NCBI GenBank assembly: GCA_021818465.1
Contig: JAKAEA010000001.1
Location: 235,662-299,661 of the forward strand
Length of the DNA stretch: 64,000 bases
Reading direction: 5' to 3'
Source of the DNA: a bacterium
Lineage (GTDB): Bacteria; Patescibacteriota; Minisyncoccia; Phycocordibacterales; JAKAEA01
The notes beneath the pieces were generated by a model that worked only from the letters and a program-made list of their open reading frames with translations, made no database searches and was not told where the DNA came from. Shown one piece after another: positions 1,311 through 20,131 of this stretch. Each line of letters begins with the position of its first letter. Position 1 is the first letter of the stretch. The position numbers and the translations under genes were made by a program.

Positions 1311-1412
1311 TTGTAATAAAAAAAGAAAATAAAAATAAAGTGAAATAAACATGCGTACTGTGCGTACTATAGACGTGTAAGCTTATTTATCTGTAACATC
1401 ACGTTTATTGTT

Positions 1413-1907
1413 ATGAAAAAATATGTTGTTTCAAGTATCGTTGTAGGAGCGATTGTTCTCTACATTCTGTATCAGCACGTGCAAGGACCGAGTGCTATCG
1501 CATTGGCACCAAGCACGCCTGCATCGTCATCATCTAAAAGCACAGCAGCTGCTTCTGGTTCGCAAACAGCGCCATCGCAGAGTTCTTCGTCTCAGACAAC
1601 ACCTAGTGCGCCGACAAGTTTGTATAAAAATGGTACGTATACTGGCGTAACGGCTAATGCTTTCTACGGGCCGATGCAGGTTGCTGCGGTGATACGTGGT
1701 GGTCAACTCGCCAGTGTTAAGGTGTTGCAATATCCACAGAGCCATAGTTATTCACAAATGGTTAATGGGGAAGCCTTGCCCTATTTAAAATCGGAAGCAG
1801 TGCAAGCGCAAAACGCCAACATTAACATTGTTTCGGGGGCGACAGCATCAAGTCAAGCGTTCATGCAATCGCTTTCTTCGGCTCTCTCGCAGGCGACCAA
1901 TGGCTAA
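1413..1907 (+). CDS. secreted FMN-binding domain protein (flavinylation substrate)
   Basis: N-terminal TM/signal, a Ser/Thr/Ala/Pro-rich linker, then an FMN_bind-like domain with a VSGATASS motif that matches the [S/T]GA[S/T] flavinylation site. It lies directly upstream of ApbE. Confidence 0.7.
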   Translation: MKKYVVSSIVVGAIVLYILYQHVQGPSAIALAPSTPASSSSKSTAAASGSQTAPSQSSSSQTTPSAPTSLYKNGTYTGVTANAFYGPMQVAAVIRGGQLASVKVLQYPQSHSYSQMVNGEALPYLKSEAVQAQNANINIVSGATASSQAFMQSLSSALSQATNG

Positions 1908-1913
1908 TACGGT

Positions 1914-2669: not shown

Positions 2670-2672
2670 ATT

Positions 2673-4211
2673 ATGAATACTCTGCGTACGTATATTGACA
2701 ATATGTTAAATAACATCACGATGTATAAACTCGTGTTGTATGTGCTTATTGGTTTGGTTGCGGTGACGGTACTCCTCGGTATAGTCGGTCTCACGCCATA
2801 TAATCCCATCGCCATAATTTTTTCAGTACTCTTTTTTACTGCTCTGTGTTTAGCTGGAAATGCGCTTTTTGCCTGGGCATTTAGCGTTCCAGCCAATACT
2901 GAATCGGTGTATATCACCGCTCTTATTTTGGCGCTTATTATTTCACCGCCACGCTCGCCAAGCGACAGTTTTTATTTTCCTTTAGCCATTGTTGCTTCGG
3001 TTGTTGCCATGGCTTCAAAATATATTTTTGCAATCAAGCGTAAGCACGTGTTTAACCCAGCCGCGCTCGCGGTGGTGGTTACTGGTTTTACCTTGGGGTT
3101 GCCAGCAAGTTGGTGGGTTGGCACCAAATGGACACTGCCATTCGTTATTGTTGGTGGACTTCTTATTACGAGAAAAATTCGTCGTTTCGATCTCGTACTA
3201 GCGTTCGGTGTTGTAGCTGCGGTAACTATGGCTGCAGCGACATTGAGCAGTCCGTTTGCTATTGTGTACAACTGGGGTGTGGCAATTGTTGATTCACCGA
3301 TTATTTTCTTTGCGACGGTGATGCTCACGGAGCCGTTGACGACACCGCCGACGCGGTGGCTACGGATTATCTACGGTGGTGTTGTGGGGTTTTTGTTTGC
3401 GCCAGCTATCCATATCGGATCGCTCTATACCTCTCCGGAGTTGGCGCTGGTGGCGGGGAACGTGTTTTCGTATCTCGTGAGTCCGAAGGATCGACTCATT
3501 CTGGAGTTGAAAAAAATTCAAAAGGTTGCCAATGACACCTATCATTTTGTTTTCAATACTCCGAAGCCGTTGGCGTTTGTGCCAGGGCAGTATCTTGAGT
3601 GGACGCTTACTCCTAAGGGGGCAGACAGTCGTGGTAATCGGCGCTATTTTACTATCGCGTCATCGCCAACAGAGCGTGAGCTTATGATGGGAGTGAAGTT
3701 TTATCCGAAGCCAAGTAGTTTCAAAAAACAATTAGCAACGATGCGTCCGCGTGACACTATTATTGCATCGCAGCGTGCTGGCGATTTTGTGTTGCCGCAC
3801 AATAAAAGAAAAAAACTTGTGTTTATCGCCGGCGGTATCGGTATCACGCCCTTTCGTAGCATGCTCAAGTTTCTCATTGATCGCGATGAGACTCGCGATA
3901 TCGTCGTCCTTTATTCTAATAAAACCATCGCTGATGTTGCGTACACCGACGTTTTGGAAACTGCACGAGAAAATCTTGGTGTTAGGACGGTGTACACGCT
4001 TACTGACGAGGCGTCTATTCCATCGACGTGGCGCGGACGGCGCGGTTTCATTGATCGAACGACGATTGTTGAAGAGGTGCCAGATTTTACAGAACGAATG
4101 TTCTATATTTCTGGTCCGCAAACGATGGTCGATCATTTTGACGAGGTGTTGCGTGATCTGGGAGTACCACGTCGACACATTAAAAAAGACTTTTTTCCAG
4201 GGTTTGCATAA
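2673..4211 (+). CDS. polytopic membrane oxidoreductase with C-terminal ferredoxin-NADP reductase-like FAD/NAD(P)-binding module
   Basis: About 8 TM helices in the N-terminal ~300 aa. The C-terminal part has an RRYFTIASSP (RxYS FAD-binding) motif and a GGIGITPFRSML (NAD(P) binding) motif. The membrane domain lacks the four His of bis-heme ferric-reductase domains. Confidence 0.7.
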   Translation: MNTLRTYIDNMLNNITMYKLVLYVLIGLVAVTVLLGIVGLTPYNPIAIIFSVLFFTALCLAGNALFAWAFSVPANTESVYITALILALIISPPRSPSDSFYFPLAIVASVVAMASKYIFAIKRKHVFNPAALAVVVTGFTLGLPASWWVGTKWTLPFVIVGGLLITRKIRRFDLVLAFGVVAAVTMAAATLSSPFAIVYNWGVAIVDSPIIFFATVMLTEPLTTPPTRWLRIIYGGVVGFLFAPAIHIGSLYTSPELALVAGNVFSYLVSPKDRLILELKKIQKVANDTYHFVFNTPKPLAFVPGQYLEWTLTPKGADSRGNRRYFTIASSPTERELMMGVKFYPKPSSFKKQLATMRPRDTIIASQRAGDFVLPHNKRKKLVFIAGGIGITPFRSMLKFLIDRDETRDIVVLYSNKTIADVAYTDVLETARENLGVRTVYTLTDEASIPSTWRGRRGFIDRTTIVEEVPDFTERMFYISGPQTMVDHFDEVLRDLGVPRRHIKKDFFPGFA

Positions 4212-4355
4212 CCGTATATCCAAAGCTGTACTGTCGATAGTGTACTCACACATAGCTATCCACTATAGTGACTTAACAAGAGAACGGGACGGGACTACAA
4301 TATGTGCAGGTGGTCTTTGATGAAGGTTCCTTAATGTACACAAAGGAGGTGTTTT

Positions 4356-5033
4356 ATGAAAGGAACTATGACGAGAAAGGGTTGTAATGTGGCACGTGCG
4401 TTGTGCAAGGCAAGTGGTGCAGGTGTTATACCCGCAACGCAGGCCGAGGAAATTCTAGGACGAGGGTACATAGGTGTTGCTGCGGGATGTGCATGTAATT
4501 TTTATTTCAGTCATCATGATCGGGTGTATTTGTGTGTCGTTGCGATGACCGAAGATGAACTCCTGACATGTCAGCAAACACATATACTAGTTGCAGTACC
4601 CGCCGGATCTCTTGTGGAGCATCGACAGATTATGGACACCGTTATTCACTCAAAACAGTCGTTGCATTATCTGTACGAACACGAACATGAAGACGGTTTC
4701 CATGAGCAACAATTTGCAACGGAACGTGGTGAAGCAGAATGGTGGCTCATACGTCGTCAGTTGGTTTCCGAAAAACAAACGCTTCTTAATGGGGAATGTG
4801 CAGTGTCAGCGCGGGCAGCAGATTACAGCATCTTTATGTGTGCGCAGCTTTTGGGGGAACGTTTGTTTTGGCAATGTGAGGCTTGCTGTTGTGATCGTCT
4901 AAAGGACGGTCGACAGGTTGCTCTTGATAATTTTAATCGAACATTCCCGTTCTTTTCATATCATATTCCTAACCAGTCACAATCGAATGTAAGTGGAGTG
5001 ATCGTTGGCCGAAAACTGGAGCTGAAACTTTAA
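4356..5033 (+). CDS. hypothetical Cys-rich protein
   Basis: Strong RBS (AAGGAGG) 7 nt upstream of the ATG. 225-aa ORF with a CEACCCD cysteine cluster. No family recognised. Confidence 0.45.
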   Translation: MKGTMTRKGCNVARALCKASGAGVIPATQAEEILGRGYIGVAAGCACNFYFSHHDRVYLCVVAMTEDELLTCQQTHILVAVPAGSLVEHRQIMDTVIHSKQSLHYLYEHEHEDGFHEQQFATERGEAEWWLIRRQLVSEKQTLLNGECAVSARAADYSIFMCAQLLGERLFWQCEACCCDRLKDGRQVALDNFNRTFPFFSYHIPNQSQSNVSGVIVGRKLELKL

Positions 5034-5141
5034 AGGTAGTATGGGGCTATCAACAACGATAGCTCCTTTTTGTTTTAGTAAGAAACAGATGTACTAAAAC
5101 GTCATTACAAAAGAGGGTTTATTTATTTTTATGTTTGCTTT

Positions 5142-5648
5142 ATGCAAAGAAATACTATTGTATTGCTTATAGTAGCACTTATCGTACTGGTGGGAGCGGG
5201 TGCTTATATAACAGCAGTGTATACGAATCCTAACATGTCGGTGCCCGCTACGGAGGTAGTGTCAAAAACGCAATCGAGTACGACGCACGATACAAACGAT
5301 ACGGTGGCATCAAAAAATTCTCTTGGTGTACTCCCGTCGGAAGGGAAAGGGATATTGCGCGGCGTTGTTATGGTAGCCTCGACGTGCTCAGGGAGCGCAT
5401 CGGTGAATTCTTTATGTACTTCACGACCGTATCCCACAACAATGTATGTATATCCAGGAGCTAGTCAGGTAGCGTCTCCAACTATTATTGCCACCAATAA
5501 TGATGGAGTATTTAACTTGACTCTAGCGGCGGGTACGTATCTGGTAGAAGCGCAAAATAGCCCAAGTGGAAATCCGTCTTGTCCAACGACAACGGTGGAA
5601 ATTGCCGCAGGTGCGACAAAAAATATCACTATGACGTGTACCCAGTAG
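5142..5648 (+). CDS. hypothetical secreted protein with a Thr/Ser-rich linker and a beta-rich domain, possibly CarboxypepD_reg-like
   Basis: N-terminal TM anchor (IVLLIVALIVLVGAGAYI), a low-complexity linker, and a C-terminal domain containing Cys pairs. Confidence 0.5.
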   Translation: MQRNTIVLLIVALIVLVGAGAYITAVYTNPNMSVPATEVVSKTQSSTTHDTNDTVASKNSLGVLPSEGKGILRGVVMVASTCSGSASVNSLCTSRPYPTTMYVYPGASQVASPTIIATNNDGVFNLTLAAGTYLVEAQNSPSGNPSCPTTTVEIAAGATKNITMTCTQ

Positions 5649-7987: not shown

Positions 7988-8179
7988 TGAGTAATTATTA
8001 ATACTTACTCAGTTTATACCAACGAGTATGGAGGTGGAAAGAGTAAAAGTGGAAAAAATCTCTACTGCAACAGCTCCAATTTCCAGTGTCAATCTGGCGG
8101 ACGTGCACTTACTGTTTTCCAATCAAATTCGGCAACCAATTCTTAATTTTTTAGAGAAAAATCAGTCGTTTTTTGTGTA

Positions 8180-8812
8180 TTAGGCGGGTACGTTTGTGGG
8201 TATTGCTCGAATTTCTTTAGTAACCATTCGGCCTTTTTCATCAACACTATATATAAGAATGGCGCCAAACGGCACCTCAAAATCTGCTATATTTTGGTCC
8301 GAAATGCTTTCTATATACTTAATAATAGAGCGTAGAGAATTGCCGTGCGCGATAACAAGCACGTTTTTACCTTCTTTAATTTTGGACAAGATAGTTTGGA
8401 GATAATACGGAACTGCTCGTTCGTACACCATTTGTAACGTCTCGCCGTGTGGAATGGGGTAATTCCAGCCGCGCCGCAATTCCTTAAATGTTTCTTTGCC
8501 CAAAAGTTTTTCCATTTCCCATTTGTTTTTTCCGGTATAGTCACCATAGTCACGTTCGTCGAGGGCAGCGTTGTGTTCAGCAGGAATTTCATCTTCATTG
8601 TTCGTGCTTAAAATACACGACAGAGTTTCCACAGCGCGCACTTGCATAGACGCAAAGGCAAAATCAATAGGAATGTCTTTAATCAGATTACCCATTTCAT
8701 TTGCTTTTTCAAAACCATAATCGGTGAGGTGGCGATCGCGTCGGCCAGTCCACTTGCCGAGTTTATTCCACTCGGATTCTTGATGACGGGCGAGTAGTAA
8801 TTTTCCATGCAT
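8180..8812 (-). CDS. gpmA: histidine phosphatase superfamily protein, cofactor-dependent phosphoglycerate mutase-like
   Basis: The N-terminus LLARHQESEWNKLGKWTGRRDRHLTDYG matches the dPGM RHGE/TGW signature. At 210 aa it is shorter than canonical GpmA. Confidence 0.65.
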   Translation of the reverse strand: MHGKLLLARHQESEWNKLGKWTGRRDRHLTDYGFEKANEMGNLIKDIPIDFAFASMQVRAVETLSCILSTNNEDEIPAEHNAALDERDYGDYTGKNKWEMEKLLGKETFKELRRGWNYPIPHGETLQMVYERAVPYYLQTILSKIKEGKNVLVIAHGNSLRSIIKYIESISDQNIADFEVPFGAILIYSVDEKGRMVTKEIRAIPTNVPA

Positions 8813-8824
8813 GGTGGTGGGTAT

Positions 8825-9796
8825 TTAGTTGACGACGTAGTGGGGCCGACGACCCTCAAAAAAGTCAATAATATTTTGAGCAGTGATAACGGCCATTTCA
8901 TCGCGCGTTTCAATGCTCGCTGAAGCAATATGAGGGGTAAGAATAACATTATTTAGACTCCGCAAACCGAGACTAACTCTAGGCTCAAATTCAAAGACGT
9001 CTAGGGCCGCCGCCGCAATAATGTTATTTTTTAACGCGTGTTCCAATGCGGCTTCTTCCACCACTGGTCCGCGGGCAGTATTAATAAGAAACGCGGTTGG
9101 CTTCATACGGCGTAAATGTTCGCCATTAATGAGGTGGCGGGTTGTTGGCAAGAGGGGCACGTGGAGACTCACCACGTCAGCTTTTGGTAATAGTGCATCT
9201 ATAGTTTGGTAATACACAGCCCCAGTTTCTTTTTCTAATTGTTCATTTTTTGTAATGTCGGTGTAGATAATATTCATACCGAGAGCTCGAGCATAATGAA
9301 CAACTCGTGCACCAATTCGGCCGGCTCCCACCAAGCCAAATGTTTTGCCGAGAATGTCGGTACCGATGAAATTCATCGGTGACCAGCCGTGGTATTCGCC
9401 CCGGCGAACCGACTGATCGGCTTCAACAATTCGGCCCGCTAACGCGAGCATAAGGGCAATGGTGTGCTCAGCGACCGCCTCGGCTGAACGAGGCGCCGGT
9501 GCATTGGTTACGATAATTCCTCGTTTTTTGGCTTCAATAAGGTCAATGTTGTCAAAGCCGCTGGCGTAATTAGCGTAGATTTTAACACTCGGCGCTGCAG
9601 TAAAAACGTCGACACCAATCGAATCAGTTAAAAGTGTAATGACGCCGTCGTACGGCTTTTTTTGCAACAAGGAAATAGTCTCATCACGGCTTGGTATAGC
9701 GTCAGAAGCATTAACGTCAACGTTGTACCCATGCTCACGAAGCACACTAAGACCCGCCTCCGGAATGGGGCGAGTTACGAACACAGATTTAGACAT
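8825..9796 (-). CDS. D-isomer-specific 2-hydroxyacid dehydrogenase (glyoxylate/hydroxypyruvate reductase or PGDH-like)
   Basis: NAD-binding GLVGAGRIGARVVHYARALGMNIIY and the catalytic region ...TARGPVVEEAALEHAL... typical of the family. Confidence 0.75.
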   Translation of the reverse strand: MSKSVFVTRPIPEAGLSVLREHGYNVDVNASDAIPSRDETISLLQKKPYDGVITLLTDSIGVDVFTAAPSVKIYANYASGFDNIDLIEAKKRGIIVTNAPAPRSAEAVAEHTIALMLALAGRIVEADQSVRRGEYHGWSPMNFIGTDILGKTFGLVGAGRIGARVVHYARALGMNIIYTDITKNEQLEKETGAVYYQTIDALLPKADVVSLHVPLLPTTRHLINGEHLRRMKPTAFLINTARGPVVEEAALEHALKNNIIAAAALDVFEFEPRVSLGLRSLNNVILTPHIASASIETRDEMAVITAQNIIDFFEGRRPHYVVN

Positions 9797-9882
9797 GTAA
9801 AAAGTATAGCATGTTTGGTCTATTGGTTTTGCTATACTATATATAGTAGTGGTTGATAACTATTGTATTAATTTTTTTTAAA

Positions 9883-10425
9883 ATGGCTCAAAAAATTTTT
9901 ATTGAAGACTCACCGTTTGCAAAGTTTGTTTTTTCCGATACACGCATTACTTGGTTTTGGTTTGTGGTGCGATTGTACGTTGGTTGGCAGTGGCTATCGG
10001 CTGGTTTTGAAAAAATAACGAGCTCGGCTTGGTTTGGTTCGCACGCCGGTAGCGCGCTCACCGGTTTTCTTAATGGTGCCATTGCTCAAACCTCTGGCGC
10101 TCACCCAAACGTGCAGGGGTGGTATGGAGTTTTTTTGCACGTTATCGTACTTTCTCATCCGGTTATCTGGTCAAATATAATTTCTGTCGGCGAATGTGCT
10201 GTGGGCGTCGCGCTTATTATCGGCGTCTTCACTGGTATCGCCGCATTTTTCGGTCTCTTTATGAATCTCAACTATTTATTGGCCGGTACGGTGAGTACGA
10301 ATCCAATTCTTTTTACTCTTGGCATTGGCCTCGTTCTGGCGTGGCGTGTTGCTGGTTGGTGGGGCGTGGATCGCTGGTTGCTTCCTATCCTTGGCACACC
10401 CTGGCAGAAGGTGGAGGTGGTGTAA
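9883..10425 (+). CDS. DoxX-family membrane protein
   Basis: RLYVGWQWLSAGFEKI and four TM helices. The ATG at 9883 is preferred over the upstream TTG at 9853. Confidence 0.6.
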   Translation: MAQKIFIEDSPFAKFVFSDTRITWFWFVVRLYVGWQWLSAGFEKITSSAWFGSHAGSALTGFLNGAIAQTSGAHPNVQGWYGVFLHVIVLSHPVIWSNIISVGECAVGVALIIGVFTGIAAFFGLFMNLNYLLAGTVSTNPILFTLGIGLVLAWRVAGWWGVDRWLLPILGTPWQKVEVV

Positions 10426-10600
10426 GATTAAAATAGGTTCTAAACACCCCATTGGGGAAAGTCGCAATCTCGCCAATCAGCCGAGACAGAGTCATATTTT
10501 TGAGATTTTTCGGATGGCATAGAAACATCCACCTATTAATTTTATACAAAAAAACCGCACGCTCAATCTAATGAACGTGCAGCTACTCCTACTTGTGTTA

Positions 10601-11569
10601 TTACAACACTGTGCGTAGGAAATGCAGAGCATTGTTGGCCGTAATTTTTTTGACCGTGTCAGGATCTCGAAACTCTTCTGTGAGTTTTCCGCTAATTATC
10701 TCCGCTTTGAGCGGAGAGTTTAGACATACTGGTTCAACTGGAAACCGGATGGGCCACCGAGGATCATCCGGAGCAAACTGCTTCATTCGCTCGAAATGAG
10801 TTCGAGCCTGAGGTTCGGGAATCTGACGATAGATCCCATCAGTTCCCAGGCTGACATTACCCAATCCGCAGATTTCAATCATGTGGCGCACGTGTTGCAA
10901 CCACGGATTAAGTGAATCGTCCGTTTGGGACAGGCCAAACGTCAAATTATAGACGCCGACAATACCACTAAATCGGGCGATGCCTGACAGAATATCGTCA
11001 GGCAAATTACGCGGGTTGTTATAAACACTATGACAACCGCCGTGGCTAGCCATGATGCGTACCCCGGGATTCTTTCGAACGAATTCAATAGTTTCCCGTG
11101 CTGTCTGATGACACGCGTGCGAGAGGTCGGCGACGATTCCGGCAACCGCCAATCCTCGCAAGAATTTTTTTCCTTGCTCAGTGAGCGGTTTGGTAGTCAT
11201 ATATCCGCCGCCGTAGGGATTTTCTTCATTCTTATAGGCGAGCGTGGTAAAGAGAATACCGAGCCGGCGAAGGGTTTTTAGATCTTCGATGTTGGCATCC
11301 ATCGGCGGCAATTGCAAACCAAGCACCACTCCGATTCGATCTCCAAGATTGTCCAAGTCTTCAATGTTTTGAATGACCAGGACATCCTCTTGTTTTTCAA
11401 AGACGCCTACTGTCTTTTGAACTTCGGCGATAATCGCCTCAGCTGTGCTGAATCGGCTGGCTATTGGCGGGCAAGCAGTGTAGCCAACAATCGCTGGTTT
11501 TGGAAATCTTGCGGCGAAAACCGGCAGCTCCATTTGCGAAGCGGGGAATGCGCAAAAGTCAACGAACAT
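10601..11569 (-). CDS. membrane dipeptidase, peptidase family M19 (renal dipeptidase-like)
   Basis: Conserved M19 blocks (HGGCHSVYNNPRNLPDD, DLSHACH). Start chosen at the ATG at 11569, which is preceded by AAGGAGG. The ORF-track start at 11635 is likely too far upstream. A terminator-like hairpin lies downstream on the minus strand (~10550-10590). Confidence 0.75.
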   Translation of the reverse strand: MFVDFCAFPASQMELPVFAARFPKPAIVGYTACPPIASRFSTAEAIIAEVQKTVGVFEKQEDVLVIQNIEDLDNLGDRIGVVLGLQLPPMDANIEDLKTLRRLGILFTTLAYKNEENPYGGGYMTTKPLTEQGKKFLRGLAVAGIVADLSHACHQTARETIEFVRKNPGVRIMASHGGCHSVYNNPRNLPDDILSGIARFSGIVGVYNLTFGLSQTDDSLNPWLQHVRHMIEICGLGNVSLGTDGIYRQIPEPQARTHFERMKQFAPDDPRWPIRFPVEPVCLNSPLKAEIISGKLTEEFRDPDTVKKITANNALHFLRTVL

Positions 11570-11757: not shown

Positions 11758-13350
11758 ATGCCTCAAAAAATATTCAGACCACCAACTCTTGTTGAGTTTT
11801 CTCATAAGGAATCAAAAATCCAAAAAACTATTGCCGATAAACAACTTGATTTTATATGTCAAAAAGATAGCGCTTTTTGGAGTCAAGAGCGCAAGAAACA
11901 ATTATTTTCTCTTTTTAAAACTTCGGTAAAAACTCTACCAGCGTATCAAGAATTTCTTACTCGAGCTGGTGTTGATTATAAGAAAATTACTACGTTCGAA
12001 CAGTTTTCGAAAACTGTTCCGCCAGTTAGTAAGGATAATTATCTCAGAACATATTCTTGGAAACAATTATGCGCCCCCGGCGCACTCACGGGTCAATCGT
12101 TAGTGTTGACATCAACTTCTGGATCGACAGGAAAACCCTTTTATTTTCCTCGTAATGGTATTCTCGATACTCAATCGTCGCTCTATCATCAAATGTATTT
12201 GCGTAATAGCGGTATTGATCCTGATAAATCAACGTTGGTGATTGTGTGTTTTGGTATGGGTGTGTGGATTGGCGGTCTTATCACGTATCAAGCCTTTAAA
12301 TATATTGCTGAGCGAGGTCATCCAATGACTATTATTACGCCCGGGGTCAATAAAAAGGAAATTTACGAAGCAATGAAAAATGTGGCACCGAATTACGATC
12401 AAATAATTCTTTGCGGATACCCGCCGTTTATGAAAGACGTGATTGATGAAGGGAAAGCTAATGGTGTTGAGTGGCGTGATTTTAATATTAAAATGAGTTT
12501 TGCGGCTGAAAGTTTTTCGGAAAAATTTCGCGATTATCTTCTTCGTAAGACTGGTATGAAAAACCCTTATCGTGACACGGCCAATGTGTATGGCAGTGCT
12601 GATCTTGGCACGATGGCTATGGAAACACCGATCGCTATTCTTATTCGCCGCTTGGCTCTTCGAAACAAAAAAATCTATAAAAAACTTTTTGGAGATGCTA
12701 GTCGTCTACCGACTCTTGCCCAATTTATTCCATCATTTGTTAATTTTGAGGCGATTAATCGAAATATTTATGTCAGCGGTGACAATGTGTTGCCATTAGT
12801 TCGTTATCAGATTGGTGACAATGGTGGTGTTCTTGATTTTGCCGAAGTAGAGGAGGTTTTTAGTGAGGCGGGAGTTAACTTGCGCGCTAAGGCGGCGGCT
12901 ATTGGTATTACCGATACCATCGCCGAATTACCATTTGTCTATGTTTATGAACGGACCGATCTCTCTACAAAGCTTTATGGGGCGATTATTTATCCGGAGT
13001 ATGTAAAAGCCGGTCTTCAACATCCGACTCTGGAAAAATATATCACTGGCAAATTTACGATGTTTACGCAATATGATAAAAAACAAAACGAATATTTAGA
13101 AATAAATGTTGAATTAAAGCCCGGTATTGTTGAGTCAGACTGGCTTAATGAGAAACTTTTAAAGTTCGTTGTAGAATTTCTTTTAAATCGAAGTGCTGAG
13201 TATAAATATCTTACTGATATGCTTGGGACGCGCGTAAGTCCTAAAATTGTTTTTTGGCCTTATGAACATGCGACTCATTTCCAGGTTGGTATTAAGCAAA
13301 AGTGGGTAAAGAAGAATGATCAAGAAAAACGTAAAAATTTTAAAAAATAG
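11758..13350 (+). CDS. adenylate-forming enzyme, phenylacetate-CoA ligase (PaaK)/CapK/F390-synthetase-like
   Basis: P-loop-like TSTSGSTGKPFYFP typical of the PaaK-like ANL subfamily. 530 aa. Confidence 0.6.
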   Translation: MPQKIFRPPTLVEFSHKESKIQKTIADKQLDFICQKDSAFWSQERKKQLFSLFKTSVKTLPAYQEFLTRAGVDYKKITTFEQFSKTVPPVSKDNYLRTYSWKQLCAPGALTGQSLVLTSTSGSTGKPFYFPRNGILDTQSSLYHQMYLRNSGIDPDKSTLVIVCFGMGVWIGGLITYQAFKYIAERGHPMTIITPGVNKKEIYEAMKNVAPNYDQIILCGYPPFMKDVIDEGKANGVEWRDFNIKMSFAAESFSEKFRDYLLRKTGMKNPYRDTANVYGSADLGTMAMETPIAILIRRLALRNKKIYKKLFGDASRLPTLAQFIPSFVNFEAINRNIYVSGDNVLPLVRYQIGDNGGVLDFAEVEEVFSEAGVNLRAKAAAIGITDTIAELPFVYVYERTDLSTKLYGAIIYPEYVKAGLQHPTLEKYITGKFTMFTQYDKKQNEYLEINVELKPGIVESDWLNEKLLKFVVEFLLNRSAEYKYLTDMLGTRVSPKIVFWPYEHATHFQVGIKQKWVKKNDQEKRKNFKK

Positions 13351-14008
13351 TATAGTTGTCATAACTGGCGCTGGCCGGGGTTTGGGAAAATCGCTTGTTG
13401 CCGCTTTTACTAATCGTGAAGCACATGTTATTGCTTCTGATATTGATTCACGTCAATACAAAACTGATGTTCGAGATGAGGTTGAAGTAAAAAGATTAGC
13501 TGATGAAATTGTTAAAAAATTTGGTCAAATAGATATTTGGATAAACAATGCCGGTATTTGGTTACCGCGGATGTCAGTTCAAGAATTAGATATGAACCGT
13601 GTTCGGGAGATTTTTAATGTTAATGTCTTCGGTACAATACATGGCACTCGAGCCGCCCTGAAAATTATGGAGCATCAAGGAAAGGGAACTATCGTCAATA
13701 TTGTTTCTACTGCCGCGCTCGTTGGTCGACCGTTCTTTGCAACCTATTCGGCGAGCAAGCATGCTGAAAAAGGTTTTACGGATTCTGTGCGAGAAGAGTT
13801 GAGAGAGCAAGGAAGCAATGTCTCCATTATCGGTATTTATCCCGGTGGTATAAAAACCAACCTTTTTGATGAGAAAAAACCTGATGATTTTGCTAAGTAT
13901 ATGGAGCCAGAATTTGTCGCGGAAGCCATTGTTGCGAACTTAGAAAAGGAAAAGCCGGAACCCGACCTCATTCTTAAACGACCAGGTCAAGATATCAAAT
14001 TTAAATAG
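13316..14008 (+). CDS. short-chain dehydrogenase/reductase (SDR)
   Basis: VVITGAGRGLGKSL (TGxxxGxG), NNAGI, and the YSASK catalytic YxxxK. Confidence 0.8.
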   Translation: MIKKNVKILKNSIVVITGAGRGLGKSLVAAFTNREAHVIASDIDSRQYKTDVRDEVEVKRLADEIVKKFGQIDIWINNAGIWLPRMSVQELDMNRVREIFNVNVFGTIHGTRAALKIMEHQGKGTIVNIVSTAALVGRPFFATYSASKHAEKGFTDSVREELREQGSNVSIIGIYPGGIKTNLFDEKKPDDFAKYMEPEFVAEAIVANLEKEKPEPDLILKRPGQDIKFK

Positions 14009-14093: not shown

Positions 14094-15272
14094 ATGCTTT
14101 CACTTCATGAGATGTTAGAGAAAAAAGATGACGTTGGTGCAAAACCGATATTTTTTGATTTGTCCCAAACTGCCGATCAAAACAAACTCTCCGCACTTTT
14201 TGCTGACAATAAAATCCAACACGTTTCCGATGATTTTGAAGAACAGCACCAAGAATTATTTGCAGTCAGAAATCCGACGATTGTCTATACGGCGGGTTTC
14301 AAAGAAAAATTTAAAAAATATTACGAGGAACTAAAAACTCAAAAGCCTCTTCAGGAACATGGCCATTGGGTCTATTTTCCATGGCTCTCGAAAATTGTTC
14401 ATATTTTAGCTGAAGAAGATTTTTTTATTGTTCGAACTGCACGCAATAAAAATCTCATTAATACCGAGGAGCAAGAAAAATTTCACAATGCCAAAATAGG
14501 TATTGGTGGTTTATCGGTTGGTTCAAGCGTCGCCTACGCTATGACTCTTCAAGGTGGGCCGAAACACGTCAAACTTGCCGATATGGATCGTCTTGCCCTT
14601 TCCAATACGAATCGCATTCTTTCTGGTGTTGATAATCTCGGAATGCTCAAAGTAGAAATGGCCGCTCGTTTCATGTATCAGATTAACCCATATATGGAAA
14701 TAGAACTTTACCCCGACGGCCTGACTCCTGAAAATATTGAAGGGTTTTGCAAAGACTTAGATGTAGTGATTGATGAGCTTGATAATTTATCGGTGAAATT
14801 TTTGATTCGTGAACAAGCCAAAAAATATAAAATACCAGTCGTTATGGCTGCTGATAATGGTGACAATGCTGTAGTAGACGTTGAACGGTATGATTTAGAG
14901 CCGGATATGCCGTACTTTCATGGTCGTATGGGTGATGTCTCATACGACATGCTCACAAAATTAGATAAATTCGGTATCGGCAAAATGATCACCAAGCACG
15001 TTGGTCCGGAAAATGTGACCGAACGAATGCAGCAATCGCTCATGGAGATGGGGAAGACTATTGTCTCTTGGCCCCAACTTGGCGGCGCGGCTTTGATTAA
15101 TGGCGCGGCTGTGGCTTATTGTGTGCGAAAAATTCTGAACAGTCAGCCACTGGAGAAAAATCGCGCCCTTGTGTATTTGGACGAAAAACTTATTCCGACC
15201 TGGAACGAGCCGACCGAAATAAAAAAACGTGCCGCTATCGCCGATGGTTTTCGGAAAATTTTTGGGTTGTAA
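14094..15272 (+). CDS. E1-like ThiF/MoeB-family adenylyltransferase with ~130-aa N-terminal extension
   Basis: Rossmann motif GIGGLSVGS and the E1 signature DMDRLALSNTNR (DxDxxxxSNLNR). There are no CxxC zinc motifs. The N-terminal extension is unassigned. Confidence 0.7.
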   Translation: MLSLHEMLEKKDDVGAKPIFFDLSQTADQNKLSALFADNKIQHVSDDFEEQHQELFAVRNPTIVYTAGFKEKFKKYYEELKTQKPLQEHGHWVYFPWLSKIVHILAEEDFFIVRTARNKNLINTEEQEKFHNAKIGIGGLSVGSSVAYAMTLQGGPKHVKLADMDRLALSNTNRILSGVDNLGMLKVEMAARFMYQINPYMEIELYPDGLTPENIEGFCKDLDVVIDELDNLSVKFLIREQAKKYKIPVVMAADNGDNAVVDVERYDLEPDMPYFHGRMGDVSYDMLTKLDKFGIGKMITKHVGPENVTERMQQSLMEMGKTIVSWPQLGGAALINGAAVAYCVRKILNSQPLEKNRALVYLDEKLIPTWNEPTEIKKRAAIADGFRKIFGL

Positions 15273-15288
15273 TTATTTTAGTTTAATT

Positions 15289-16092
15289 CTATTTATTATT
15301 TTTTTGAGAATTTTTACCCAGTCTCTTAGCTTCCTCCCAGGCGAGATCAAAAACACTCTTCATAACGTCTGCCATTTCTTTACTTTCAACACTTATCGCT
15401 ATACCCCCGTGGTCGTGAGAAGCATAGGCAATTTTGTTATCGTAAATGACTAAATCGGCGGATATTTTGTATTTGTCTGGTGGTATGAGTATTGGTTTGT
15501 CAAGATTTTTAGTGTTATATCTAAGTAAATTTCGATTAAACTCATTATCGGGATGGATACCATGCATTTTGATATTTAATTGGTATCTTTTTTGTAAATA
15601 TTGCGGCATATAGTCACCCATGATTTCTCTAAGATTTTCTGTGGCGGAAATCACCCGCATCAATTTTTCTTTTGTTTTAAGAGTCTCTTCAAAAGCGCTA
15701 ATTAAACCTTCTTTTCCTTCAAATACTCGAACTTTCGGTTTTTGTTTAGTATCTTTATGTAAGGCTTTTAGTTCTGGTAATATTTTCTCAATTTTATTTA
15801 AAATATTTTCTTGCTTATCCACCATATTTTCGGCGGTATGAAGTAAAATATCAGGAGAAGTGGCGATATACTGTCGAACATCCTTATCGTCTGAGATACT
15901 TACTAATCCTTTTTTTATAAGAGATTCAAGTACGACATAAATTGTGCTTCTATTGATTTCGGTATGTCGAGAGATTTCTTGCACGGGAGCAATTTCAAGT
16001 TCAAGCAACGCTACGTAAATACGTGCCTCTTTTTCATTAAGACCAAATTCTATAAGAGTTTTAGTAAGCATAGTGTTAATGGGTGTTAACAA
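15289..16092 (-). CDS. TrmB-family transcriptional regulator
   Basis: N-terminal wHTH (LIEFGLNEKEARIYVALLELEIAPVQEISRHTEINRSTIYVVLESLIKKGLV). Divergently oriented from the small peptide gene. Confidence 0.7.
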   Translation of the reverse strand: MLTPINTMLTKTLIEFGLNEKEARIYVALLELEIAPVQEISRHTEINRSTIYVVLESLIKKGLVSISDDKDVRQYIATSPDILLHTAENMVDKQENILNKIEKILPELKALHKDTKQKPKVRVFEGKEGLISAFEETLKTKEKLMRVISATENLREIMGDYMPQYLQKRYQLNIKMHGIHPDNEFNRNLLRYNTKNLDKPILIPPDKYKISADLVIYDNKIAYASHDHGGIAISVESKEMADVMKSVFDLAWEEAKRLGKNSQKNNK

Positions 16093-16143
16093 TATTGTTA
16101 TAATTTACGTTTCGAAACTATTTTTGTTGTTATAGTATAACAA
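16088..16143. promoter_or_regulatory. two palindromic operator-like sites sharing a TTGTTATA half-site in the divergent intergenic region
   Basis: AACAATATTGTT at 16088-16099 (extending to TTGTTATAA) and TTGTTATAgTATAACAA at 16127-16143 are perfect inverted repeats. They lie between the TrmB regulator and the peptide gene. Confidence 0.4.
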
Positions 16144-16345
16144 CACAATAGAAATAATACAAGCTACTAGCGAATTAGTGCGGTGATAATTTTTTTTAGC
16201 AGTAGTTGTTTATAGGGAAAAAGTATTGTCTCGTGATTGTTATATGTTTACAACATTTTTGAAGGGTTTATTTTTTAGTTAGATAAAAAGTTGGAGTGCG
16301 TGATTTGTATATCAACTCATTGAAAAAAGAAAGGAGGTGATTATC

Positions 16346-16450
16346 ATGGCAAACCAACCAACAGGCCCCCATGGGGGTTCGTCGGGTGGCACTAGTACCG
16401 GCAACAATGGTTCGGGCGGTGGCTCTCACGGTGGTCCTCGAGGAGGATAA
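16346..16450 (+). CDS. 34-aa Gly/Ser-rich small peptide (MANQPTGPHGGSSGGTSTGNNGSGGGSHGGPRGG)
   Basis: Not in the ORF track (<60 aa). A perfect RBS (AAAGGAGGTG) lies 7 nt upstream of the ATG, and a rho-independent terminator follows immediately. No Cys. Ser/Thr sit in a Gly-rich context. Confidence 0.55.
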   Translation: MANQPTGPHGGSSGGTSTGNNGSGGGSHGGPRGG

Positions 16451-16471
16451 TTTCTCGTCGGACTATAGTAG

Positions 16472-16505
16472 AATAGGGTGAGAGTTTTCTCACCCTATTT
16501 CTAAT
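16472..16505 (+). terminator. rho-independent terminator after the small peptide gene
   Basis: AGGGTGAGA-gttt-TCTCACCCT, a 9-bp perfect stem followed by a T-rich tract. Confidence 0.7.
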
Positions 16506-16519
16506 TTATATAAAAATAT

Positions 16520-16789
16520 ATGTCTAATAAAAATAATATAAAATATCCTGTTGTTTTTATTATCTACAGAGATATCGTTCTCTGGGAGAGTCAGGTTAAG
16601 ATTAAAAGTGGTTTTCCTGTACATATTTTTCACGCAGTTGGTTTTTTAATTGAAGATAATACTGATAATTATGTTATTGCCCGAGAGATTGTGACAAATC
16701 AAAATGACGATCTCCGAGGGGCAATGACTATTCCCAAAGAAACAATCTTGCATTTTGAAAAGATCAAAGAAAATAAAATAATTTCTTAA
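16520..16789 (+). CDS. hypothetical protein (89 aa)
   Basis: ORF inside the AT-rich island with no recognisable motifs. Confidence 0.35.
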   Translation: MSNKNNIKYPVVFIIYRDIVLWESQVKIKSGFPVHIFHAVGFLIEDNTDNYVIAREIVTNQNDDLRGAMTIPKETILHFEKIKENKIIS

Positions 16790-16811
16790 AGATTAGCATA
16801 TTGTTATTTTT

Positions 16812-17309
16812 ATGAAATTAAAATCTACTCTCACCAATCGTTCAGGCAAAATATTGTCTGTTATTTATTCGGAAAAAGATCCTCTCATTGGCTTAGAAGG
16901 GAAAATTTTGCAAGGCGTTCACGCTTTTTGTTTTTGGGGAAATCACATGGTATTGGTGCATCATCCTAAAAGTGGGTGGATGCCACCGGGTGGTGGCATT
17001 GAACGTAATGAAAATTATATAGAAGCGACGTTACGAGAAGTTAAAGAGGAAACAAATATGAAAGTCACGTATCTAAAAACAATCGGTTTTCAGGATACAT
17101 ATGAGCCGGGGAAAGTGGTCCGACAGGTGCGGAATTTTTGTTTAGTTGAACCGTGTGGAGATTTTACATCAGATCCCGATGGTGAAATTATGGAAATTAA
17201 ACTTATTAGACCGGAAGACTATAAACAATATTTTGATTGGGGCGAAATTGGCGATAGAATTATGACGCAAGCGTTGAAATATAAGAGTAAAATAGCCGGG
17301 ATTTTATAA
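16812..17309 (+). CDS. NUDIX hydrolase
   Basis: Nudix box GGGIERNENYIEATLREVKEETN (Gx5Ex7REUxEExGU). Confidence 0.8.
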   Translation: MKLKSTLTNRSGKILSVIYSEKDPLIGLEGKILQGVHAFCFWGNHMVLVHHPKSGWMPPGGGIERNENYIEATLREVKEETNMKVTYLKTIGFQDTYEPGKVVRQVRNFCLVEPCGDFTSDPDGEIMEIKLIRPEDYKQYFDWGEIGDRIMTQALKYKSKIAGIL

Positions 17310-17381
17310 ACTTCTTATATTATTTGGTCTATCTAAGCTTATGAGATATAATCTTAATATCGAAAGTTATTGTGTTTTTCT

Positions 17382-18416
17382 ATGAAAGAAAACTATAAAG
17401 CTTGGCAAATAGATCTGAACTCTTTCAAAGAGCTTAAAACTGAAGTTGAGAGATTAAAATTTTTCTTAAAATTTGCCGTATTAGCTCCTTCGAGTCATAA
17501 TTCACAACCTTGGTTATTTTCAGTTTCTGAAAATAGTATTCAAGTTTATCGAGCAAAGTTTCGTTCTCTTCCTATCGCTGATGTAAATAATCGTCAACTT
17601 TTTTTAAGTATTGGTTGTGCTATTGAACATATTGTTATTGCTGCTCAGTATTATGGATATAGCACTAATGTAGAATATAAGGACGATTTAATTAACCCCA
17701 ATCTTGCTGCTATTATCACGTTTAGAAAAGAAGAAAAAAAAATTCAAACAATCGAAAGTTTACGTTATATCCAAGCTATTCTAAAAAGAAAGACAAATCG
17801 TGGTAAATACAAAAAAGAAAAAATTTTAGAAAATTTATTGGAAAAAATAGAAAAGTTAAAAACTCCCAATCTTAATATATATGTGATTAGTGATACTGAA
17901 AAAATATCTAGACTTGCCGATATTGCCGTTCAAGCTTCTATTGAATCAATGGTTGACGATAATTTTCGTTTAGAACTCTCTCATCATCTTAAACATAATT
18001 TAACAAAATCTAAAATTGGCATGCCTGGTTTTAGTTTGGGTTTGCCGACGCTGGTTTCATTTTTATTACCACATTTAATGAAACAATTTAATTTGGAACG
18101 AGTAGCTCAAAAACAAAACGAGAAATTATTTAAAAAACATACTCCATATATAGTTATATTAACGACTAACGGTGATTCACGAAAAGATTGGCTAGAAGCT
18201 GGCCGAGTATTTGAACAGATTACCCTTACTCTAACGCACGATAATATTAGCGTGTCTCCTTGGGGTGCGCCAATTCAAATAGGAGAATTTTACAGAAATA
18301 TTCAGAAAATTCTTCACACTAGTTTTCGGCCACAGATGTTTTTTCGAGTAGGGTATGCTCAAAAAAAAGCAAGATTTAGTCCTAGATTAATAGTTGAAGA
18401 TGTTCTGGATAAATAG
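17382..18416 (+). CDS. nitroreductase-family protein, Acg/tandem-nitroreductase-like
   Basis: APSSHNSQPW motif and a ~340-aa length consistent with the double nitroreductase fold. The ATG at 17382 is preferred over the TTG at 17370. Confidence 0.6.
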   Translation: MKENYKAWQIDLNSFKELKTEVERLKFFLKFAVLAPSSHNSQPWLFSVSENSIQVYRAKFRSLPIADVNNRQLFLSIGCAIEHIVIAAQYYGYSTNVEYKDDLINPNLAAIITFRKEEKKIQTIESLRYIQAILKRKTNRGKYKKEKILENLLEKIEKLKTPNLNIYVISDTEKISRLADIAVQASIESMVDDNFRLELSHHLKHNLTKSKIGMPGFSLGLPTLVSFLLPHLMKQFNLERVAQKQNEKLFKKHTPYIVILTTNGDSRKDWLEAGRVFEQITLTLTHDNISVSPWGAPIQIGEFYRNIQKILHTSFRPQMFFRVGYAQKKARFSPRLIVEDVLDK

Positions 18417-18526: not shown

Positions 18527-20131
18527 ATGACTTTTGTATTCAATATAGATATTCTATCGGTTGGAATTGCGATTGCGGCTAATATAATTCTTGGTTTCGT
18601 AATTTTTGTTTCAAACAAAAGAAATATTACTACAACTCTATTTTTTTTACAGACAATTATATTATCTTTATGGAGCGTTGCTAATTATTTAACATATCAG
18701 ATTACTGATTTACAAATATCTTTATGGATGGAAAGAATGGTTATATTTTTAGCTGTTCCTAATTCGATTGTTTTTCTTTTACTTATGTATCATTTTCCTG
18801 AAAAACGCTGGTTGCTTTCTAGGAAAATAACACTTATTGGATTCGTTGTTGTTGTAAGTACAATGTTTTTAACATTAACTCCTTATATTTTTTCGGGCGT
18901 GCGATTAGTTGCTGGTATTCCAACTCCACAACCAGTAGTTCAGCCAGGGATTCTTTTATTTGCTGTAGTTTCGGTGCTCTCAATTCCGGTTGGAATTTAT
19001 TTCTTAATTGTTAAGTATGTAAAAAGTACTCAATTAAATAAATCACGAATTGGTTATTTGTTATTGGGAGCAATAATTATGTTTCTTTTTATTGTAATAT
19101 TAGATTTTGTATTTCCGGTCTTCATAAACGATACTCAATTTATTCCTTTTAGTGCAGTTTTTACCTTTCCTTTTGTAGGATTTACTTTTTATTCAATCTA
19201 TAGGCATCAACTTTTTAATATACGAGCAGCGTTAGTGGCTGGTCTAACATTTATTCTTTCTGTTTCAGCTTTCATTGAAATAATTTTTTCAACAACAGTG
19301 TCGGTGATAATTTTGCGTAGTGCGGTCTTTATCCTTGTGCTGGCTATCAGTATTATGATGAATCGTTTTGTGCAGACAATTGCTGAACAGCGTGAAAAAT
19401 TGGTAGTTGCCAATGAGGGTCAACAACAATTCATCCACTACCTCAATCACGAGTCAAAGGGGTACTTGACTGATGACAACGTAGTGCTCGCGGCGGTGCG
19501 GGATCAGGATTTCGGGCCGACCTCGCCGGAACTGCAGAAGATGGCCACCACCGTGTTGCGCAAGAACGCGCGGGCGGTGGATGATATTGACGAAATGATT
19601 CTCGGCGCCGACCTCGGCAGCGGGGTGGTGCGCTACACTATGGAGCCGTTTGATCTGGCTGCCGCGACACGCACCTTTGTGGACGAGTATCGACCGGACG
19701 CTGAGGAGAAACAGCAGAAGCTGGAGTTTCGTTTGGAACCGGCCGACGGCGACTTTACGGTGGTGGGCGACAAGCGACGCCTCATCCGCCATGCCCTGAA
19801 AAATTATCTCAAGAATGCCATCGTCTACACGCCCGTCGGCGGAACGATTAGTGTGACGCTCTCGCGGGTGCCGGCGGCGAAGGCGGGCGAGCCGGCGCGC
19901 GTGCGGCTCGCCGTGCACGACTCGGGTGTCGGTATTGCGCCGGAGGACAAGCCACGACTCTTTACCGAGGGTGGCAAGGGTCTCCATTCTACCGACGTCA
20001 ATCCCAACTCCACTGGCCGCGGCCTCTTCATCGTCAAGCAAATTTTGGACGCCCACCACGGCCGCGTTTTTGCCGACTCCGAGGGCGCTGGCAAAGGCGC
20101 GACGTTTGGGTTTGAGGTGCCAGTAGGGTAG
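18527..20131 (+). CDS. membrane sensor histidine kinase (polytopic N-terminal sensor, C-terminal HATPase)
   Basis: About 7 TM helices, then an H-box-like IHYLNHESKGYL and an HATPase_c domain (HDSGVGIAPEDKPRLF, GRGLFIVKQILDAHHGRV, GKGATFGFEVP). No response regulator is adjacent. The 3' ~700 nt are strikingly GC-rich. Confidence 0.75.
   Translation: MTFVFNIDILSVGIAIAANIILGFVIFVSNKRNITTTLFFLQTIILSLWSVANYLTYQITDLQISLWMERMVIFLAVPNSIVFLLLMYHFPEKRWLLSRKITLIGFVVVVSTMFLTLTPYIFSGVRLVAGIPTPQPVVQPGILLFAVVSVLSIPVGIYFLIVKYVKSTQLNKSRIGYLLLGAIIMFLFIVILDFVFPVFINDTQFIPFSAVFTFPFVGFTFYSIYRHQLFNIRAALVAGLTFILSVSAFIEIIFSTTVSVIILRSAVFILVLAISIMMNRFVQTIAEQREKLVVANEGQQQFIHYLNHESKGYLTDDNVVLAAVRDQDFGPTSPELQKMATTVLRKNARAVDDIDEMILGADLGSGVVRYTMEPFDLAAATRTFVDEYRPDAEEKQQKLEFRLEPADGDFTVVGDKRRLIRHALKNYLKNAIVYTPVGGTISVTLSRVPAAKAGEPARVRLAVHDSGVGIAPEDKPRLFTEGGKGLHSTDVNPNSTGRGLFIVKQILDAHHGRVFADSEGAGKGATFGFEVPVG

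Follow-up and report, generated by a model that had tools for sequence, protein, structure and literature searches.

Do a ThiF/E1-like protein and a nitroreductase-fold protein that are encoded close to each other in a Patescibacterium act together and, if so, on which kind of substrate? This question is raised by a stretch of 64,000 nucleotides (hereafter the window; GenBank assembly GCA_021818465.1, contig JAKAEA010000001.1, positions 235,662 to 299,661), in which the genes for a ThiF/E1-like protein of 392 amino acids (aa) (14094-15272, plus strand) and for a nitroreductase-fold protein (17382-18416, plus strand; 344 aa from an ATG start, 348 aa from a TTG at 17370) flank a 34-aa open reading frame (ORF; 16346-16450, plus strand). 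An initial annotation of this DNA had correctly recorded an E1-like protein with an N-terminal extension, a nitroreductase-fold protein and a small peptide between them, and had read the trio as a partial analogue of the McbBCD and MccB microcin systems or as a coincidence. Our analysis points elsewhere: with a probability of roughly 0.6, the ThiF-like protein and the oxidase are two enzymes of one small-molecule pathway and are related, in split form, to the oxazolone synthetases TrzS, TyzB/TyzC and OxzB. The core of this cluster, which is conserved in Patescibacteria (Parcubacteria/Paceibacteria), consists of a ligase that we call protein X, the ThiF-like protein, a flavin-dependent oxidase (FDO) and a histidine kinase with a seven-transmembrane (7TM) sensor region.

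Family relationships of the ThiF-like protein

The N-terminal extension of the 392-aa protein (about 110 residues) is real, because the Pfam ThiF match only starts at residue 118. A comparison with NCBIfam matched the protein to the Rv1355c family NF005901 (722 positions) over positions 5-349 with an E-value of 3.7e-102 and 343 bits, and by its sequence the whole protein, extension included, corresponds to the N-terminal half of the Rv1355c/TrzS family. ThiF and MoeB models matched at about 1e-19 to 1e-20 and the TcdA model at 6e-15, with equivalog scores far under their cut-offs, such as 72 versus 275 bits for the MoeB/ThiF models and 55.6 versus 304 bits for the TcdA equivalog NF011696. Over residues 12-379, the window protein shares 50% identity with P0243, a full-length family member that exceeds the Rv1355c family cut-off (485 versus 476 bits). 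This full-length match, together with the gene fusions described below, makes the N-terminal extension a trait of a family of small-molecule cyclases.

An exhaustive HMMER search recovered 950 cluster representatives of the family at E ≤ 1e-30, and 57 of the 150 best-scoring representatives were 690-800 aa long. More than 100 orthologues shared 65-87% identity with the window protein. Across 15 of these orthologues, the Gly-rich loop (G139/S141/G143), D163, the SNTNR motif (N171/N173/R174), K186 and D227/E228/D230 were invariant. In M. smegmatis TrzS, the substitution D217A abolishes cyclisation; a counterpart of this Asp may be among the conserved aspartates of the window protein (D163, D227, D230).

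A profile built from the ThiF orthologues and run against the sequences of the whole PDB matched TcdA (2e-15), AclA (9egb; 3e-13), MoeB and ThiF (about 1e-8) and PaaA (3e-4). With the same whole-protein profile and a threshold of E ≤ 10, MccB was reached at E 0.4 through its Rossmann core only, and no McbB chain was among the matches. The relationships to TrzS, TyzB/TyzC, OxzB, MccB and McbB were examined throughout via NCBIfam family models and these PDB searches. A literature search on AclA, taken as the closest solved structure to the ThiF protein, found nothing usable. Neither a rhodanese domain nor a paired CxxC zinc motif was seen in the window protein.

The family to which the protein aligns has characterised members. 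TrzS, experimentally shown to be an oxazolone cyclase fused to a flavin oxidase, forms N-acyl tryptazolone from N-acyl-tryptophan in two steps, an ATP-dependent cyclisation and then a desaturation that depends on O2 (PMC12856293). Cyclisation and desaturation are carried out by the separate proteins TyzB and TyzC in M. tuberculosis (PMC10404671) and by the single fusion OxzB in Pseudoalteromonas rubra (bioRxiv 10.1101/2020.06.11.147165). The Rv1355c/TrzS family acts on small N-acyl amino acids, and the characterised members of this ThiF clade that are paired with an FDO all make oxazolones (PMC12856293, PMC10404671).

The locus resembles each of these systems in part. As in mycobacterial TrzAS (Rv1356c/Rv1355c), with whose cyclase half the window protein aligns end to end, the ATP-binding motifs are retained and the partner is an FDO of the nitroreductase superfamily; full-length ThiF-FDO fusions of the Rv1355c family also exist in Patescibacteria relatives. 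Unlike TrzAS, the window encodes two genes that lie 2.1 kb apart, an Acg-type oxidase (FDO-B) instead of the TrzS-type FDO-A, a PaaK-like ligase where a TrzA-type N-acyltransferase would be expected and a 7TM histidine kinase within the operon, and the host is a Patescibacterium and not a mycolic-acid actinobacterium. The split architecture recalls TyzACB (Rv2336-Rv2338c, N-acyl-tyrazolone), in which TyzB and TyzC are separate proteins encoded side by side (PMC10404671); differences are the FDO-A23 type of TyzC, the acyl-homoserine lactone synthase-like acyltransferase TyzA that provides the N-acyl amino acid, and the length of TyzB (318 aa versus 392 aa). OxzAB has the ThiF and nitroreductase domains in common with the window and uses them to cyclise and oxidise an N-acyl aromatic amino acid in an ATP-dependent manner (bioRxiv 10.1101/2020.06.11.147165), while OxzB is fused, the N-acyltransferase OxzA uses fatty acyl-CoA and the system has been described in Proteobacteria only.

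Conservation of the cluster and the place of the oxidase

To compare gene neighborhoods, we used 82 loci, comprising 80 Patescibacteria loci from different species found in a scan of species-representative genomes and two loci fetched before. Each locus covered up to 10 kb on each side, and adjacency, defined as a distance of at most 300 nt, was counted only over the loci with enough flanking sequence (73 or 66). ThiF was present in all 82 loci, protein X in 78, a nitroreductase in 66 (never two) and the 7TM kinase in 57. The core order was X, ThiF, nitroreductase and kinase, almost always on the same strand. X was located within 300 nt 5' of ThiF in 59 of 73 assessable loci, and a nitroreductase within 300 nt 3' of ThiF on the same strand in 46 of 73, while in 16 of these 73 it was found elsewhere in the fetched locus and in 11 there was none. 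The kinase was found in 54 of 66 assessable loci and directly followed the oxidase in 35 of the 66. The proximity of ThiF and nitroreductase is far above chance.

Gene fusions between the same partners were found among long family representatives. According to NCBIfam, of five such proteins P0243, P0251, P0263 and P0312 are ThiF-FDO fusions and P0285 (924 aa) is a ThiF-ammonia-lyase fusion, and in P0371 protein X is fused to ThiF, with the X part showing 42% identity over 480 aa. Fusions were also found in operon contexts. L093 contains an amino-acid dehydrogenase, an X-ThiF fusion (1114-3705), a hydrolase, a kinase and a receiver, L094 an aromatic ammonia-lyase, X, a full-length TrzS-type ThiF-FDO fusion (3195-5375), a methyltransferase and a kinase, and L095 a ThiF-ammonia-lyase fusion (153-2927), X, a nitroreductase and a kinase. 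Because of this synteny and these fusions, coincidence is rejected as an explanation for the neighborhood of the E1-like and nitroreductase-like proteins, and the suggestion that the two belong together is borne out.

The window oxidase had been judged to be Acg-type and not SagB-type, and this assignment held, with a score of 226.8 bits against the Acg family NF047509 (cut-off 199) over profile positions 3-319 of 319. It also matched the C-terminal half of the Rv1355c profile (positions 371-653, E 2e-23, 82.6 bits), and among solved structures the best relative is Acg (PDB 2ymv). The motif APSSHNSQPW is located at residues 39-48. The nitroreductases of the 82 loci split into two clades that were never found together in a locus. 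The majority clade (55 loci) nearly always lies directly 3' of ThiF and has its best match in the Rv1355c C-terminal half (E 1e-48 to 1e-59), which makes it TrzS-type/FDO-A. The minority clade (11 loci and the window) is Acg-type/FDO-B, with 202-231 bits versus the cut-off of 199, and its members are 37-45% identical to the window oxidase. Residues kept at 85% or more across both clades and the fusions (APSxxNxQPW, G82, E86, R140/N143/R144, G217, G278, R326 and R339) are mostly retained by the window oxidase, which deviates at H87 and T285. A second, TrzS-type oxidase was looked for in the window and not found.

L088, the closest relative with a long contig (ThiF 78% identical), has X, ThiF, an Acg-type oxidase, the kinase and then TrmB on the minus strand; its oxidase is 53% identical to that of the window and follows ThiF after a 3-nt gap. 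Of four look-ups made with oxidase orthologues as starting points, three led to the cluster. The order is X, ThiF, TrmB (minus strand), oxidase and kinase in L089, TrmB, oxidase, dehydrogenase, X, ThiF and kinase in L091, and receiver, oxidase, dehydrogenase, X, ThiF, hydrolase and kinase in L092. Judged from these sequences, the Acg-type oxidase of the window is a genuine cluster member in the slot of the TrzS-type desaturase. The exclusivity of the clades, L088 and the look-ups together indicate that the window holds a canonical cluster in which an Acg-type oxidase has been substituted and a segment with TrmB, peptide, 89-aa ORF and NUDIX gene has been inserted. Acg, Rv3131 and Rv3127, the FDO-B proteins of the M. 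tuberculosis DosR dormancy regulon, are encoded by stand-alone genes in mycobacteria, whereas the Acg-type gene of the window fills a slot that a TrzS-type desaturase occupies in most relatives.

In L090, the fourth look-up, an oxidase of the Acg type was found together with a methyltransferase and a kinase-like gene (8001-11384), with neither ThiF nor the ligase within 8 kb. From this locus, the link between oxidase and kinase may be independent of ThiF and ligase.

Protein X, the kinase and the accessory genes

Protein X (530 aa; 11758-13350, plus strand), the first core gene of the window, had no Pfam match, no direct sequence match in the PDB and no match to the PaaK equivalog models of NCBIfam. 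A profile search reached PaaK structures at 1.5e-7. An AlphaFold2 model with a pLDDT (predicted local distance difference test) of 88 gave as top Foldseek matches in the PDB PaaK1/2 (best, E 2.6e-20), BT_0428, AjiA1, 6siw/6siy (a PaaK-family AMP-ligase) and ClxA, with E-values from 1e-20 to 1e-14, and X also contains a phosphate-binding SGSTGKP-type loop and a T118-P131 invariant motif. As modelled, X has the ANL/PaaK two-domain fold. It shares fold and loop motif with the PaaK-family aryl-acid ligases PaaK1/2, BT_0428, AjiA1 and ClxA and differs from them in being about 100 residues longer, in lacking a Pfam match and in its marginal sequence similarity.

Several relatives encode an amino-acid-converting enzyme directly 5' of X. 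In 20 loci this was an ELFV-type amino-acid dehydrogenase with ScyB tryptophan dehydrogenase as its best match, in ten an aromatic amino-acid lyase with the flexirubin tyrosine ammonia-lyase FlxA as its best match and in nine a HisC-family aminotransferase. The FlxA-like lyase 5' of X in some relatives parallels the flexirubin pair FlxA/FlxY. Dehydrogenase, ammonia-lyase and aminotransferase all deaminate an (aromatic) amino acid to a carboxylic acid, the natural substrate class of PaaK-type ligases. Receiver-domain genes were present in 25 loci. The window itself was searched for such genes, and neither a receiver domain nor a dehydrogenase for amino acids, an ammonia-lyase or an aminotransferase like those of the relatives was found.

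An acyltransferase of the OxzA, TyzA or TrzA type was found neither among the window ORFs scanned nor among the annotated families common to at least eight of the 82 loci, as judged by family assignment and not by direct comparison with TyzA, TrzA or OxzA. A neighbor family of about 305 aa without a Pfam match (c12) was considered as a TyzA-like acyltransferase and rejected on account of a class-I methyltransferase-like GxGxG motif; in L090 and L094, its position is occupied by Pfam-annotated methyltransferases. About 13 loci have a methyltransferase-like gene between oxidase and kinase.

The last core gene of the window encodes a histidine kinase of 534 aa (18527-20131, plus strand; Pfam HisKA_7TM and HATPase_c) with a 7TM N-terminal sensor region. 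Its GC content is split, with about 0.31 in the 7TM half and 0.60-0.65 in the half encoding the dimerization/histidine phosphotransfer and ATPase domains (19400-20100), while the latter half has 0.37-0.51 in orthologous kinases of five relatives. The same 534-aa kinase gene is present in two assemblies. The kinase core may have been exchanged by recombination or horizontal transfer, or both assemblies may contain the same chimera.

Two further genes stand beside the core of the window. A short-chain dehydrogenase/reductase (SDR; 230 aa, 13316-14008, plus strand; Pfam adh_short, E 2.9e-45) lies between X and ThiF, and an M19 dipeptidase, a metallopeptidase of the renal-dipeptidase/dehydropeptidase family (10601-11569, minus strand; Pfam Peptidase_M19, E 4.3e-32), is divergent from X. 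Both recur in a few relatives. L003 has an SDR with 67% identity in the same position, similar SDR genes in eight of the 82 loci are mostly positioned otherwise, and L005 and L017 have M19 orthologues of 43-45% identity between X and ThiF.

The 2.1 kb between ThiF and oxidase contain a TrmB-family helix-turn-helix regulator on the minus strand (15289-16092; Pfam TrmB, E 1.8e-16), the 34-aa ORF, an 89-aa ORF (16520-16789, plus strand) without a Pfam or NCBIfam assignment and a 165-aa NUDIX hydrolase (16812-17309, plus strand; Pfam). TrmB is a recurrent accessory gene, with orthologues of 50-61% identity adjoining the cluster in L005, L017, L026, L029, L079 and L088 and TrmB-family genes flanking it in L089 and L091 too. 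A homologue of the 89-aa ORF was found in none of the 82 loci, NUDIX homologues occur in only three loci at varying positions, and both genes are lineage-specific insertions between ThiF and oxidase. The GC content over 15289-18416 (TrmB, intergenic DNA, 89-aa ORF, NUDIX and oxidase) is 0.28-0.38, compared with a window mean of 0.43, which fits the idea that this segment was inserted or exchanged.

The 34-aa ORF (sequence MANQPTGPHGGSSGGTSTGNNGSGGGSHGGPRGG) is rich in Gly, Ser, Thr and Asn, contains no Cys and ends in Gly-Gly. A AAAGGAGGTGA ribosome-binding site lies 7 nt upstream of the ORF and a 13-bp terminator-like hairpin with a T-rich tail follows it at 16471-16500; the GC content of the ORF is 0.61, compared with 0.28-0.30 in the neighboring DNA. 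No Rfam RNA family matches the region. We searched the 82 loci and the regions upstream of TrmB orthologues in all fetched loci for small ORFs that are Gly-rich or end in Gly-Gly, and only L088 had a counterpart. This counterpart (14867-15028) is a Gly-rich ORF of 53 aa that ends in GRGR, adjoins the TrmB orthologue and lies outside the operon. The Gly-rich ORFs of window and L088 each have a ribosome-binding site and a terminator hairpin and are divergent from the orthologous TrmB genes. The 34-aa ORF is probably a real small gene and probably neither a part of the pathway nor its substrate, and a link of the peptide to TrmB is more likely than one to ThiF. Its earlier reading as a pathway partner is thus not upheld, since the peptide is absent from the related loci examined with the exception of the close relative L088.

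The rest of the window is made up of housekeeping genes (enolase, SecA, GatB, MurJ, LepA, LeuRS, TsaD, FtsZ/FtsA and others), and the named homologues of the window proteins belong to Parcubacteria/Patescibacteria. The window starts (1413-4211) with genes for an FMN_bind protein and an ApbE flavin transferase, and it also encodes there a protein of 512 aa in which a membrane region of the RnfD/NQR2 type is joined to an NAD_binding_1 domain, a fusion that is unusual in a Patescibacterium. In L088 (1-6554) and L089 (10724-17023), large SpvB/RHS/YD-repeat toxin genes together with barstar-like immunity genes adjoin the cluster.

A proposed pathway and its alternatives

In the pathway that we propose, X would adenylate an aryl carboxylic acid that stems from an aromatic amino acid and couple this acid to an amino acid, either directly or via CoA; in relatives, the aryl acid could be supplied by the adjacent Tyr-ammonia-lyase-like, Trp-dehydrogenase-like or HisC-like gene product. 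The ThiF-like enzyme, a predicted ATP-dependent cyclodehydratase of the TrzS/TyzB/OxzB type, would then adenylate this N-acyl amino acid on its carboxylate, and attack by the amide oxygen would close a 5(4H)-oxazolone ring. The FDO would desaturate the C-alpha/C-beta bond with flavin mononucleotide (FMN) and O2. In the window genome, the Acg-type FDO takes the place of the TrzS-type enzyme, with the segment of TrmB, peptide, 89-aa ORF and NUDIX gene inserted between ThiF and oxidase. M19 enzymes are dehydropeptidases, and the M19 protein might plausibly, if speculatively, act on an N-acyl dehydroamino acid released by oxazolone hydrolysis. The presence of the kinase in the same operon suggests that the product or a precursor of the pathway is sensed, or that the product exerts a regulatory effect.

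What the sequences show is homology, a conserved gene order, fusions and retained motifs, from which all chemical steps, the substrate, amide formation by X and any signalling are inferred. This scheme is weakest where X is assumed to form the amide and where the Acg-type oxidase is taken to be catalytically equivalent, and several observations weigh against it. Without an N-acyltransferase of the OxzA/TyzA/TrzA type, the pathway must begin differently, and the amide-forming role assigned to X is a guess. The window also lacks the upstream amino-acid-converting gene of the relatives and has the SDR and M19 genes instead. Its ThiF and oxidase genes lie 2.1 kb apart and are not co-transcribed, because an intervening gene is on the opposite strand. 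The oxidase is Acg-type, desaturase activity has been demonstrated for no Acg-family protein, and the FDO-A type common to all characterised oxazolone desaturases is not that of the window enzyme. An identity of 65-87% among the ThiF orthologues listed is unusually high for an enzyme of secondary metabolism and could mean that the protein has another, more central role, and no product has been observed for any Patescibacteria member of the cluster.

Some of these points lend weight to a reading in which X, ThiF and FDO act together on a non-oxazolone, making or degrading, for instance, an aryl-acid derivative that is cyclised or amidated in some other way, a molecule similar to a cofactor or a part of the envelope. 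Such a role would agree with the missing canonical N-acyltransferase and the very strong conservation of ThiF, with an oxidase that is swapped between clades or absent (11 of 73 fetched loci) while the kinase stays, and with methyltransferase, hydrolase, SDR and M19 accessories that differ between loci. Every characterised FDO-paired member of the ThiF clade makes oxazolones, however (PMC12856293, PMC10404671), and L094 has a full-length TrzS-type fusion in the same operon context, so that we regard another chemistry as a serious but clearly minority possibility. Far more doubtful is that the ThiF-like protein activates a ThiS, MoaD or ubiquitin-like sulfur carrier or modifier next to an unrelated housekeeping nitroreductase of the Acg/NfnB type. 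The Pfam ThiF domain, the MoeB/ThiF matches in NCBIfam, the annotation of some orthologues as molybdopterin or thiamine adenylyltransferase and the Acg-family membership of the oxidase would all be expected of such an enzyme. The initial annotation had likewise weighed a grouping with these activators, which is contradicted by MoeB/ThiF equivalog scores far under the cut-offs next to 343 bits for the Rv1355c family; in addition, no plausible beta-grasp ORF with a terminal Gly-Gly (ThiS/MoaD-like) was found within the window, where the only ORFs with this ending are the low-complexity 34-mer and one unremarkable 58-aa ORF. The absence of a visible rhodanese domain or paired CxxC motif in the ThiF protein and the conserved operon and fusions with X, FDO and ammonia-lyase favor a small-molecule pathway instead. 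We give similarly little credence to a TcdA-like cyclisation of threonylcarbamoyladenosine (t6A) to ct6A in tRNA. TcdA is the best sequence match among solved structures and performs an analogous ATP-dependent cyclodehydration, some orthologues are named tRNA threonylcarbamoyladenosine dehydratase by the Joint Genome Institute, and TsaD is encoded in the window (55314-56468), but the TcdA equivalog score stays far below its cut-off, the N- and C-terminal regions are common to TrzS and not to TcdA, and no tRNA-related purpose can be seen in an operon that combines a PaaK-like ligase and a flavin oxidase with amino-acid-converting enzymes and a sensor kinase.

Just as improbable is a system for a ribosomally synthesised and post-translationally modified peptide, with the 34-aa peptide as the target of the nitroreductase-fold dehydrogenase and of the E1-like protein, the latter serving either as a C-terminal adenylase like MccB or as a docking partner like McbB/SagC. 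The peptide ORF lies between both enzyme genes with a strong ribosome-binding site, a terminator and a distinct composition, its Gly-Gly end is the classic C-terminus of E1 substrates and a Gly-rich counterpart exists in L088; since its C-terminus is formally an N-acyl amino acid, oxazolone-type chemistry on the peptide would be conceivable. Comparative genomics largely refutes this idea, as the peptide is missing from the 82 loci and its L088 counterpart lies outside the operon. Like the thiazole/oxazole-modified microcins of the McbBCD type, the locus has E1-like and nitroreductase-fold proteins and a Gly/Ser-rich small ORF nearby, and ATP-dependent cyclodehydration followed by FMN-dependent dehydrogenation would give an oxazole-type ring in both cases. 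It differs in that the E1-like protein is catalytic-type and unrelated in sequence to McbB/SagC, the oxidase is not SagB/McbC-type and the peptide has no Cys and is not conserved with the enzymes. YcaO is missing from the window as previously noted, with no PF02624 match in the ORFs scanned with Pfam (every ORF of at least 300 aa was scanned or covered by precomputed Pfam hits). With MccB (microcin C) and PaaA (pantocin A) the protein shares an E1-like adenylating core behind an N-terminal extra domain; the MccB-type combination of an N-terminal peptide-clamp domain and an Asn-terminated heptapeptide is not found in the window, although the N-terminal extension might conceivably be related distantly in fold to a peptide clamp, and the Gly-Gly end of the peptide, correctly described as not being Asn, is a misfit to MccA. 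The profile comparison that had been proposed left MccB marginal and McbB absent in the PDB search and placed the oxidase above the Acg cut-off. What survives of the microcin analogy is thus the broad chemistry of ATP-dependent cyclodehydration, flavin dehydrogenation and a five-membered O,N-heterocycle, as in the closest characterised relatives (PMC10404671, PMC12856293), whereas its specific framing gives way to the Rv1355c/TrzS match. The cluster is not a YcaO-less microcin system.

Taken as a relative of the oxazolone synthetases, the cluster combines a split ThiF/FDO pair with a PaaK-like ligase instead of an acyltransferase, an operonic 7TM kinase and, in this genome, an Acg-type oxidase. 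Oxazolone synthetases in the searchable literature come from Proteobacteria and Actinomycetota only and are always accompanied by an acyl-CoA-dependent N-acyltransferase. Literature searches for these enzyme families in Patescibacteria or in the candidate phyla radiation gave no results. Patescibacteria are usually described as organisms with very small genomes and little capacity for biosynthesis, and the same enzyme pair is strongly conserved across many of them, wired to a ligase at the start of the cluster and to a sensor kinase at its end.

The substrate class of the Acg/Rv3131 family has so far only been predicted (PMC10404671). The replacement of the TrzS-type enzyme by an Acg-type oxidase in the operon offers a lead on this class. 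The cluster itself can be tested as a concrete candidate source of a specialised metabolite, or of a signal, that is conserved in the candidate phyla radiation. It is a speculative and rather unlikely extension that the operon of ligase, ThiF, oxidase and 7TM kinase, often with receiver genes nearby, forms a self-contained chemical signalling module, in which an aryl-oxazolone or a related labile heterocycle would be made from aromatic amino acids and sensed by the kinase. As a corollary of this extension, proteins of the Acg family would desaturate N-acyl amino acids or substrates of the oxazolone type, since they can replace the TrzS-type oxidase in the operon. If the extension is true, a small-molecule autoinducer or a system for sensing the host would be proposed for the first time in these ultra-small episymbionts.

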